A DNA stretch of 64,000 nt from Escherichia coli (GTDB lineage Bacteria; Pseudomonadota; Gammaproteobacteria; Enterobacterales; Enterobacteriaceae). Every line of letters starts with the position of its first letter. The first letter of the stretch is position 1. The DNA is taken from NCBI RefSeq assembly GCF_045037415.1, contig NZ_CP173438.1, one strand, 5' to 3'. This document shows, piece by piece, positions 18,001-21,000 of the stretch. Made by a program: the position numbers.

Positions 18001-21000
18001 ACTCCTCCGCCAGCACAACGTCATGAACGCCTGCACCGACGCTATCGACAGCGACCCAGGAGCGGTCCTTCATCAGCTGTTGGTTATCATCCAGTTGGGT
18101 GATCAACAACAGGTTGCTGCCGCGCAGCTCATCGCACTTTTGCGTGGCGACGACATGTCCGGTTACCTTTGCGAGAATCATCGTTTTTATCGCCTTATCT
18201 CAATGAATTACTTGCCTAAGCGCTCAAGCACCTGGCGGATGACTCGCTCAACGTTCTGCTCGTTGATCTCGCCTTCGGGATCAGTCGTTGCCACAGTAAA
18301 ACGATCATCAGCAGATGTGGTTGCCGGGGCAGGGGAGGTGAAGCGGGCATCGTCAAGAATGCTGCGATGCGGATCCACTATCGGCGCGGCGATGGCTGGC
18401 TGCGGTTCTGCACGGCTACCCGGAGAACGCAACTCATCGATGGAACGCACGCCATAGCCCACTTTACGAATGTTGAGCAGATTCATTGGCCCGACGTTAT
18501 CGGAAGAGGAACCACCACCTACCGCACCGCATCCAAGCGTCAGGGCGGGGGTAATGTTAGTGGTAGCGCCAATACCGCCAAGCGCCGCAGGGGTATTGAT
18601 CAGAATGCGGTTAACCGGTTTTTCAAGGCAGAATTGACGGATCACATCCTGGTTGCGGGTATGGATCACCAGTGTGTGGCCCAGACCTTCGTTAGTCAGC
18701 AACTCCACCACGCGGTGGCAGGCAGCTTTCCAGTCCTCTTCGATATACAGACCAAGAACCGGGCACAGCTTTTCACGTGAGTAGGGGTTTTTGTGAGAAA
18801 CGGTAGTTTGTTCGGCAATCAGTACTCTGGTACTGGCGGGCACACAAAAACCGGCCATCTGGCTTAAATACAGTGCGGTTTTTCCCACCACTTTCGGGTT
18901 AATCGTGCCGTTCGGGCGCAGCAGCAGAGCTGCCATTTTTGCCGCTTCATCTTCGTTCATAAAGTAAGCACCCTGAGCTTCCAGTTCGCGGTGTACTTCG
19001 TTGTAAATGCAGCGTTCAACAATAATCGACTGTTCAGAAGCGCAGATCACACCATTATCGAAGGTTTTGCTGGTGATGATATCTTTCACCGCATGGTGGA
19101 TATCCGCACTGCGTTCAATAAATGCCGGACCGTTACCAGGACCACCGCTGATGGTCGGTGTGCCAGAAGCATATGCTGCTCGTACCATTCCTTCACCACC
19201 GGTAGCCAGAATCAGCGAAACATCTTTGCTATGCATCAGTTCCTGGGTTGCTTCCAGCGTGAGCTCGGTTACACCATCGACAATACCCGCAGGTGCACCA
19301 GCAGCTTCTGCGGCACGCTTAACGACTTCTATCGCCTTCCAGCTACACTGACGTGCGCCGGGATGCGGAGAGAAAATAATCGCATTACCGGCTTTCAGGG
19401 CGATCAGCGTTTTGTAGAAGATGGTGGAAGTCGGGTTGGTTGACGGCACCAGGGCGCAAATCACACCCAGCGGCACGCCCACGTCCATCACTTTTTGCTG
19501 TTGATCGTCATGAATGATGCCGACGGTCTTCATATCTTTGATGGCATCGTAAACACGCAGCGAGGCGAAACGGTTTTTCAGGACTTTATCCTGCCAGTTG
19601 CCGAAGCCAGTTTCTTCTGCGGCCATTTTTGCCAGTGCTTCAGCGTGGTGTGCTGCTTCCTGGGCCACGTTTTTCACGATGGCGTCGATTTGCTGCTGCG
19701 AAAAAGTGGCCATAATCGCTTGCGCTTTTTTGGCGTTACGCACCAGCACCCGCGCGTTCTGACGGGAGCGCAAATCGGTATCCAGTTCAATCATGAGTCT
19801 ATCCTTCATCAGACTAAAAGAGTGCAGACGGGGCGTGCCCTGTCAGGTCATGCTTTATGCTGCGACGCGATTTTTTCGATGTCGTTATGCGGGCGGGCGA
19901 TGACACGGGAGGTCACCACTTCACCGATACGTCTTGCTGCTTCAACACCGGAATCCACCGCGGCATTCACTGCGCCAACGTCGCCTTTTACCATCGCGGT
20001 GACTAGGCCAGAGCCGACGTTTTCATAGCCAATCAACTCAACGTTGGCGGCTTTACACATCGCGTCTGCCGCCTCAATACAGGCCACCAGACCTTTGGTT
20101 TCGATCAGACCAAGCGCTTCTCTCATTATGTTTTCTCCGGTTAATCGGTAATTTTGTAGTGCGAGACAATCTTGTTGATGTCATTGTGTGGACGCGCGAT
20201 AACCAACGACGTCACCACCTCGCCAATGCGCTGTGCGGACTCAACACCGGAATCCACCGCCGCTTTTACTGCGCCGACATCACCTTTCACCATTGCGGTA
20301 ACCAGACCAGAACCGACGTTTTCATAGCCAATCAACTCAACGTTGGCGGCCTTACACATCGCGTCAGCTGCTTCAATACAAGCCACCAAACCTTTGGTTT
20401 CAATCAGACCTAATGCATCACCCATGTTTCTTCCCTCCGGCCTTAAGCTTTATGTTTAATAACGATTTTGTTGATGTCGTTGTGAGGACGCGCGATAACC
20501 AGCGACGTCACCACTTCCCCGATGTGCTGTGCGGACTCAAGTCCAGAATCGACAGATGCTTTCACTGCGCCAACGTCGCCTTTCACCATCACGGTCACCA
20601 GACCAGAGCCGATGTTTTCATAGCCAATCAGTTCAACGTTGGCGGATTTACACATCGCATCCGCTGCGGCAATACAGGCCACCAGGCCTTTGGTTTCGAT
20701 AAGCCCTAATGCATCACCCATGGTGATCTCCTCAGAACAGGTTTTGTGATTCAGGAAAACCGTCCGTGACACAGCGTTAACTCACGGAAGCGGCGTTCGA
20801 ATGTCACTATAGAGCTCATGGAATTTTGTGGAATTTAAATCTGCTGACAGCAATGATTTAGAATTAAATTCTGAAATTTAGCTTTCAATACACTCTGATT
20901 TATGTATTTGTGCTGGAGTGGTGGGGAGGATTTTGTTTTTAATAATGCGCTTTTTGGCGTATTTTTTTCGCCGGGTATGTTTGTTGCTAAGTTGCTAAAT

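Follow-up and report, generated by a model that had tools for sequence, protein, structure and literature searches.

The window, the whole 64,000-nucleotide stretch of Escherichia coli contig NZ_CP173438.1 (RefSeq assembly GCF_045037415.1) that was analysed, carries three tandem genes for BMC-H shell proteins at positions 19848-20721. A sequence-only reading had described an array of three successive shell genes, and this description is correct: all three are complete ORFs on the minus strand, the coordinates are exact, and the encoded proteins are very similar. The genes are listed here with their evidence.

20443..20721, minus strand: cmcA, first BMC-H shell gene of the cut operon; ORF of 92 amino acids, tail ...KIVIKHKA (Pfam BMC, E=1.5e-29; PDB 7MGP; WP_000502008.1 of E. 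coli 536; cut-locus listing in PMC10710832)
20141..20425, minus strand: cmcB, second BMC-H shell gene; ORF of 94 amino acids, last 10 residues not spelled out here (Pfam BMC, E=4e-30; PDB 7MPW; WP_000502010.1 of E. coli 536)
19848..20126, minus strand: cmcC, third BMC-H shell gene; ORF of 92 amino acids, tail ...KIASQHKA (Pfam BMC, E=5e-30; PDB 7MPV; WP_001206281.1 of E. coli 536; a single orthologous clade in 35 genomes)

The ORFs are separated by spacers of 17 and 14 nt, and each ATG has its own GGAG-type Shine-Dalgarno sequence upstream. In all three products PF00936 (BMC domain) aligns to residues 4-79 over profile positions 1-75 of 75, with E values from 4e-30 to 1.5e-29. The proteins have the BMC-H layout of one canonical, non-permuted BMC domain in about 90-100 amino acids (92, 94 and 92), and the edge lysine K25 and pore motif G38-S39-G40 that go with this class are unchanged across the copies. 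CmcA is identical to PDB 7MGP save for the engineered K25A, CmcB to 7MPW save for K25D, and CmcC to 7MPV save for K25A; the point-mutant entries 7MN4 (CmcB E35G, PMC10710832) and 7MPX rank next after 7MPW and 7MPV, respectively. These residue-for-residue matches, engineered K25 excepted, correspond to hexamers with a central pore, the oligomeric state being that of the literature (PMC10710832).

Several other reading frames were considered and rejected. A GTG start at 20772 would yield a CmcA of 109 amino acids, and was ruled out in favour of the ATG at 20721, which has a GAGGAG Shine-Dalgarno sequence and agrees with both RefSeq and the crystallised protein. Plus-strand ORFs of 51-98 amino acids lie within the array (20159..20413, 20172..20327, 20413..20709 and 20529..20702), and one of 177 amino acids (19495..20028) overlaps cmcC and cutF. 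None is in the RefSeq annotation, and none was accepted as a gene, since such frames arise mechanically on the strand opposite genes that are strongly conserved, annotated and crystallised.

Over 1201 bp around the array, the window matches E. coli 536 and many human isolates of extraintestinal pathogenic E. coli at 100% identity, and UTI89 at 99.9%; its identity to Ecol_AZ146 extends over 24 kb. Among 5426 complete E. coli genomes, 321 have the region, on the chromosome in every case. The names cmcA, cmcB and cmcC follow from the accessions WP_000502008.1, WP_000502010.1 and WP_001206281.1, which appear in the published list of the 16 genes of the E. coli 536 cut locus (PMC10710832). The three genes are almost certainly cmcA, cmcB and cmcC, heading the structural operon of a type II choline-utilisation (cut, GRM2) microcompartment in a genomic island that extraintestinal pathogenic E. 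coli carry, and no observation speaks against this identification. In comparison with E. coli 536 (Herring et al. 2018, as cited in PMC10710832; Ochoa et al. 2023, PMC10710832), the DNA, accessions, flanks and gene order are the same and the three genes show no difference, although the strain background differs, and nhaC is intact in the window but interrupted by an IS100 insertion in strain 536. The array is therefore the known system itself rather than a relative of it; earlier published work has named, crystallised, mutated and discussed it. That discussion covers both how redundant the paralogues seem and how prone their direct repeats are to recombination (PMC10710832).

The remainder of the locus is arranged as follows.

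18208..19794, minus strand: cutF, acylating acetaldehyde dehydrogenase, directly downstream of cmcC (Pfam Aldedh; WP_000570989.1)
17924..18181, minus strand: cmcD, BMC-P pentamer (vertex) protein (Pfam EutN_CcmL, E=1.6e-15; RefSeq)
16754..17908, minus strand: cutO, alcohol dehydrogenase (RefSeq '1-propanol dehydrogenase PduQ'; CutO name from PMC10710832)
13341..16727, minus strand: cutC, choline trimethylamine-lyase, long type II form of 1128 amino acids (ORF; WP_000035052.1)
12342..13289, minus strand: cutD, glycyl-radical activating enzyme (RefSeq annotation)
11866..12330, minus strand: cmcE, fourth BMC-H protein, with a C-terminal extension, 154 amino acids (Pfam BMC, E=3.4e-21; RefSeq)
11249..11869, minus strand: cutH, phosphotransacylase (RefSeq 'phosphate propanoyltransferase'; CutH name from PMC10710832)
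21241..23178, minus strand: upstream regulatory genes, namely TetR-family (23178..22600), winged-helix (22577..21759) and FidL-like (21759..21241)
20722..21240, minus strand: intergenic region of 519 bp upstream of cmcA, with no annotated ORF in 536 or Ecol_AZ146

Strain 536 and Ecol_AZ146 share this order, which runs from the three BMC-H genes through acetaldehyde dehydrogenase, EutN-family pentamer, alcohol dehydrogenase, cutC, cutD and the fourth BMC-H gene to a phosphotransacylase, a hypothetical gene and two DMT transporters. As expected of a type II cut (GRM2) locus, the long form of cutC and cutD lie 3-7 kb downstream of the array, and genes for aldehyde dehydrogenase, alcohol dehydrogenase and phosphotransacylase belong to the same operon. 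The shell set is likewise that of type II, with four BMC-H proteins, one BMC-P and no BMC-T. A BMC HMM scan of the 33-kb locus of strain 536 detected cmcA, cmcB, cmcC and cmcE only, and no BMC-T is reported genome-wide outside the eut locus (PMC10710832). As far as sequence can tell, then, all the defining features of BMC-H proteins and of a type II cut/GRM2 locus are present. Choline-induced microcompartments and production of trimethylamine (TMA) have been reported for E. coli 536 (PMC10710832).

The regulatory genes match TetR_N/TetR_C_28, Trans_reg_C and FidL_like in Pfam, in agreement with RefSeq annotation, and by the gene order given in PMC12058022 they are presumably cutW, cutX and cutY. 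CutX and CutY are described as activators (PMC12058022). The intergenic region upstream of cmcA is the presumed, putative choline-induced promoter of the cut structural operon. A sigma-70 consensus scan upstream of cmcA found no site, a result that is uninformative, yet compatible with an activator-dependent promoter. A tRNA scan of the window found none, and an Rfam scan of the window returned an IS3 frameshift pseudoknot alone.

The copies had been called almost identical, a description that fits the proteins better than the genes. Relative to CmcA, protein identity is 88% for the second copy and 82% for the third, and a 40-residue peptide quoted in the earlier reading is exact in copies 2 and 3, with copy 1 departing from it at three residues (A18, S26 and I37). 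For DNA the description is overstated: pairwise alignment of the first 88 codons gives identities of 84% for cmcA-cmcB, 79% for cmcA-cmcC and 80% for cmcB-cmcC, and the longest exact runs shared by these pairs are 17, 23 and 38 bp, respectively. Most differences fall in third codon positions (31 of 43, 38 of 56 and 42 of 52, in the same order of pairs). Synonymous codon differences number 30, 27 and 35 over the 88 codons, compared with 8, 16 and 8 that are non-synonymous, a pattern typical of old paralogues, all three under purifying selection.

Conservation of the arrangement was assessed with CutF as an anchor, by which 50 loci were fetched from a collection with one genome per species. cmc-type BMC-H genes lie directly upstream of cutF in 35 of them. 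CutF-like loci without upstream BMC-H genes include those labelled L030 and L032. The species with these genes span Kluyvera, Klebsiella, Raoultella, Enterobacter, Providencia, Serratia, Pragia, Erwinia, Pantoea, Aeromonas and Photobacterium. A triplet of 92, 94 and 92 amino acids directly upstream of cutF occurs in 35 of 36 genomes (the window and 34 of 35 other species), and ranges over Enterobacterales, Aeromonas and Photobacterium; the exceptions to the CmcB length in this sample are one protein of 104 and one of 100 amino acids. Of 105 cases, 104 have the paralogue at the same position as their closest protein in another species. The arrangement is an old one and has stayed stable.

A neighbour-joining tree built on the shared 255 nt (85 codons) places the CmcC sequences in one clade (35 of 35, 72% bootstrap), whereas CmcA and CmcB are intermixed and not reciprocally monophyletic, so that orthology of these two rests mainly on position and tail. 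The tails are specific to position across species: KIVIKHKA, almost invariant, in CmcA; KIxxxYKxxE/D, two residues longer and containing a tyrosine, in CmcB; and KIAxQHKA in CmcC. Further CmcC markers that recur across species are K/R2, N54, A63, R74 and the tail form KIA(S/A)QHKA, and in the window CmcC has R2/E3, N54, A63, R65, R74 and E84.

The GRM2 genes cmcA, cmcB and cmcC of Klebsiella pneumoniae (Kalnins et al. 2020, PMC6971018) represent the same triplet in the same order and locus type. The cryo-EM shell 6QN1 from that species matches window CmcC with E=2e-49, and the sampled Klebsiella species have the 92-94-92 layout and tails seen in the window. The K. pneumoniae genes are orthologues, but their sequences differ, with a CmcA-CmcB identity of 95% (PMC12058022) versus 88% in the window, where E. 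coli CmcA has the extra substitutions A18, S26, I37, V44, S56, L61 and H66. PduA/PduJ and EutM, of the propanediol and ethanolamine microcompartments, share the fold, the domain and the edge lysine (PDB matches with E of approximately 1e-25 to 1e-31), and the pore-serine logic is common to PduA and the Cmc proteins, S40 of PduA corresponding to Cmc S39. However, they belong to other microcompartment types with other cargo, and their loci encode BMC-T trimers, which the type II cut locus lacks (PMC10710832).

The array had also been flagged as prone to recombination and copy-number change. Lambda-Red recombineering of cmcABC gave deletions of 299 bp and 595 bp between direct repeats of 38, 23, 20 and 14 bp (Ochoa et al. 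2023, PMC10710832), and we located all four repeats in the window, at homologous offsets of the gene pairs named there. Two natural variants are consistent with such events. E. coli IPCEC48 (GCF_026001205.1) has a span of 902 bp rather than 1201 bp and two annotated BMC genes, the second of which is a cmcB/cmcC hybrid, resembling cmcB as far as the 38-bp run and cmcC beyond it; the crossover inside this run amounts to the same 299-bp deletion as was published. Kluyvera ascorbata ATCC 33433 also has two genes, and its first is identified as a cmcA/cmcB hybrid because the region directly upstream of it is of cmcA type and its tail is a frameshifted one of cmcB type. These two hybrids may be new. 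The published deletions and the hybrids thus bear out the proposed instability in kind, but not in frequency: of the 321 complete E. coli genomes that carry the locus, 320 have three genes (319 at 99% identity or better, and a single genome whose best match is 95-99%), as do 34 of 35 other species. Unequal recombination does occur, though it is rare, and almost all genomes retain three copies.

With these data two further accounts of the array can be weighed. One attributes the three-copy state to faulty assembly, with collapse or expansion of repeats hiding a different true copy number. Exact repeats of up to 38 bp are common to the copies, such that an assembler with k<39 could in principle mis-join them, and the finished IPCEC48 genome does have two copies. 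However, DNA identity is just 79-84%, of the array's 844 31-mers only 16 occur more than once (judged within the window), and repeats of the array's k-mers in the window disappear once k reaches 39 nt. If a read were assigned to the wrong copy, it would disagree at 8 or more positions for a length of 100 nt (median 13-16) and at 18 or more for 150 nt, the full range of mismatches for 100-150 nt being 8-27. An artefact, the probability of which we consider close to nil, would also be hard to square with the same three genes in 320 of the 321 E. coli genomes, each finished independently, and the same 92-94-92 triplet in 34 other species. The warning of a hazard for short-read assembly is therefore not borne out, given the absence of repeats at k of 39 or above, the mismatches in misplaced reads and the agreement in copy number with hundreds of finished genomes. 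In practice, the three-copy state is correct and stable and poses no realistic short-read problem, although rare two-copy hybrids exist. A recent tandem amplification in this lineage, providing redundant gene dosage, would fit the high protein identity of 82-88%, but not the heavy synonymous divergence (27-35 codon differences per 88 codons), the single CmcC clade, or the retention of triplet, order and paralogue-specific tails in 35 genomes from several gammaproteobacterial orders. Moreover, each single deletion gives an aberrant morphology of its own, and of the pore mutants that of CmcB alone limits choline use (PMC10710832). This account is very improbable, and a recent duplication as such is ruled out by cross-species orthology.

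Far more evenly balanced is the proposal of concerted evolution, according to which gene conversion keeps the copies alike, their similarity reflecting ongoing homogenisation and not functional constraint alone; we regard the odds as about equal. DNA identity within genomes exceeds that between species for every paralogue pair (0.865 versus 0.830, 0.791 versus 0.770, and 0.811 versus 0.779), and the intermixing of CmcA and CmcB in the 85-codon tree agrees with this. In Kluyvera genomosp. 3, Raoultella BIGb0138 and Enterobacteriaceae RIT693, cmcA and cmcB share identical runs of 137-167 bp, compared with 23-41 bp in congeners, which points to recent conversion ending before the tails. In E. coli, the 38-bp run of cmcB and cmcC is longer than 99.5% of codon-column shuffles, although it is only mildly unusual (p=0.005) by a shuffle that ignores local constraint. 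On the other hand, the longest E. coli runs for cmcA-cmcB (17 bp, p=0.95) and cmcA-cmcC (23 bp, p=0.25) give no sign of recent conversion, shared codon usage could explain part of the within-genome excess (GC3 is 0.34-0.76 across species), and the tails and CmcC-specific residues remain distinct. Concerted evolution complements the explanation of the array as cmcABC of the cut operon rather than replacing it.

CmcA equals CmcB over residues 1-85, the tail being the sole difference, in 5 of 35 genomes. The conserved C-terminal tails, in many species the chief or sole feature by which CmcA and CmcB differ, may specify distinct roles. A stronger version is that the cmcA and cmcB bodies (codons 1-85) have been repeatedly homogenised by gene conversion in several lineages beside position-specific last ~8 residues, such that the tail alone sets the non-redundant roles; this is a tentative proposal that we think somewhat more apt to fail than to hold. 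Converting bodies beside fixed tails across species may be a new, if small, observation.

As single-domain BMC-H proteins, CmcA, CmcB and CmcC would form flat hexamers, possibly mixed, that tile the shell facets; mixed hexamers of the three are possible (PMC12058022). The shell would enclose CutC/CutD, CutF, CutO and CutH and so confine acetaldehyde, and small molecules would pass via a central hexamer pore narrowed at Ser39. The paralogues are old and non-redundant, with transport and assembly roles that we take from the literature on E. coli 536 and Klebsiella. In E. coli 536, CmcA, CmcB and CmcC have identical pores, constricted by S39 (Ochoa et al. 2023, PMC10710832). CmcB is the main choline pore and carries most choline flux, as indicated by S39L and E35G phenotypes, and only the CmcB pore mutant restricts choline use (PMC10710832). 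Single cmc deletions hardly affect growth, each giving its own aberrant microcompartment morphology, and the cmcABC triple deletion leads to acetaldehyde overproduction (PMC10710832). In Klebsiella, cmcC with cmcD is enough for shells, as is cmcAB with cmcD, but cmcA or cmcB alone with cmcD is not (Kalnins et al. 2020, PMC6971018); truncation or alteration of the CmcC tail there changes particle size and does not abolish assembly (PMC6971018).

The cut microcompartment matters for the production of trimethylamine from choline in gut and urinary-tract bacteria. The pattern of tail and body could guide work on shell-protein specialisation and, if the tails do set the roles, could explain why CmcB, rather than CmcA or CmcC with their identical pores, carries the choline flux.

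The array of BMC-H shell genes, cmcA-cmcB-cmcC, is naturally two-copy in E. coli IPCEC48 (NZ_AP026794.1; L052:1649-1927, in the compared locus of that strain), where it carries a cmcB/cmcC hybrid gene. The crossover in this hybrid lies within the 38-bp run that is identical between cmcB and cmcC, and the resulting 299-bp deletion is the same one reported under lambda-Red (PMC10710832). The two-copy state of IPCEC48 could be a true polymorphism or a mis-assembly. Only two BMC-H genes are likewise found 5' of cutF in Kluyvera ascorbata ATCC 33433 (L007:5383-5709). The first of them directly follows a cmcA-type upstream region and ends in a cmcB-type tail, which is broken by a small insertion (atcaaaacaag in place of the expected ATCAACAAG). 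This gene seems to be a frameshifted A/B hybrid; in this draft assembly the frameshift may be an error of sequencing.

Long runs of identical DNA between cmcA and cmcB, 137-167 bp in length, occur in Kluyvera genomosp. 3, Raoultella sp. BIGb0138 and Enterobacteriaceae RIT693 (loci L005, L013 and L019, at about 5090-5670 in each). The corresponding runs in congeners of these three genomes are only 23-41 bp. The long runs seem to mark recent gene conversion, with tracts ending short of the C-terminal tails.

The cut locus resides within a mosaic genomic island flanked by dsdCXA and cadCBA, and the following features of the window accompany the array:

10572-11237, minus strand: 221-aa gene of the cut operon, 3' of cutH, annotated as hypothetical in RefSeq
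18208-18420, minus strand: C-terminal ~70 aa of CutF
23469-24700: transposase of the IS3 family that has a programmed frameshift
24285-24401, minus strand: ALIL pseudoknot of the IS3-family transposase (Rfam RF01497, 117.6 bits), a short way 5' of the cut regulatory genes
25156-27778: MalY/PatB and intact nhaC
about 29000-45000: island content, namely a restriction endonuclease, inovirus Gp2-family genes, ISEc10 and an integrase fragment, with a CP4-like block of an antirestriction protein, a JAB/RadC-like protein, a CbeA/CbtA toxin-antitoxin and several DUF genes

No Pfam match at E <= 1e-3 was obtained for the 221-aa protein, and no tRNA gene was found within the window. Whereas nhaC is interrupted by an IS100 (IS21-family) insertion in E. 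coli 536, it is intact in the window, which therefore derives from an ExPEC background other than 536. The genome of Ecol_AZ146 is identical to the window over 24 kb.

The Pfam Aldedh match in CutF (533 aa), the acylating acetaldehyde dehydrogenase, covers residues 16-279 only. The C-terminal portion of CutF consists of a long Pro/Ala-rich linker and then an amphipathic segment (...EGEINEQNVERVIRQVLERLGK) that resembles a microcompartment encapsulation peptide. CutF-like aldehyde dehydrogenases of Pantoea coffeiphila and Erwinia sp. JUb26 (L030 and L032), with 78-82% identity over a span of no more than residues 1-471, lack the C-terminal extension, and no BMC-H genes were detected across these 13-kb loci. 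These enzymes may be non-compartmentalised relatives.
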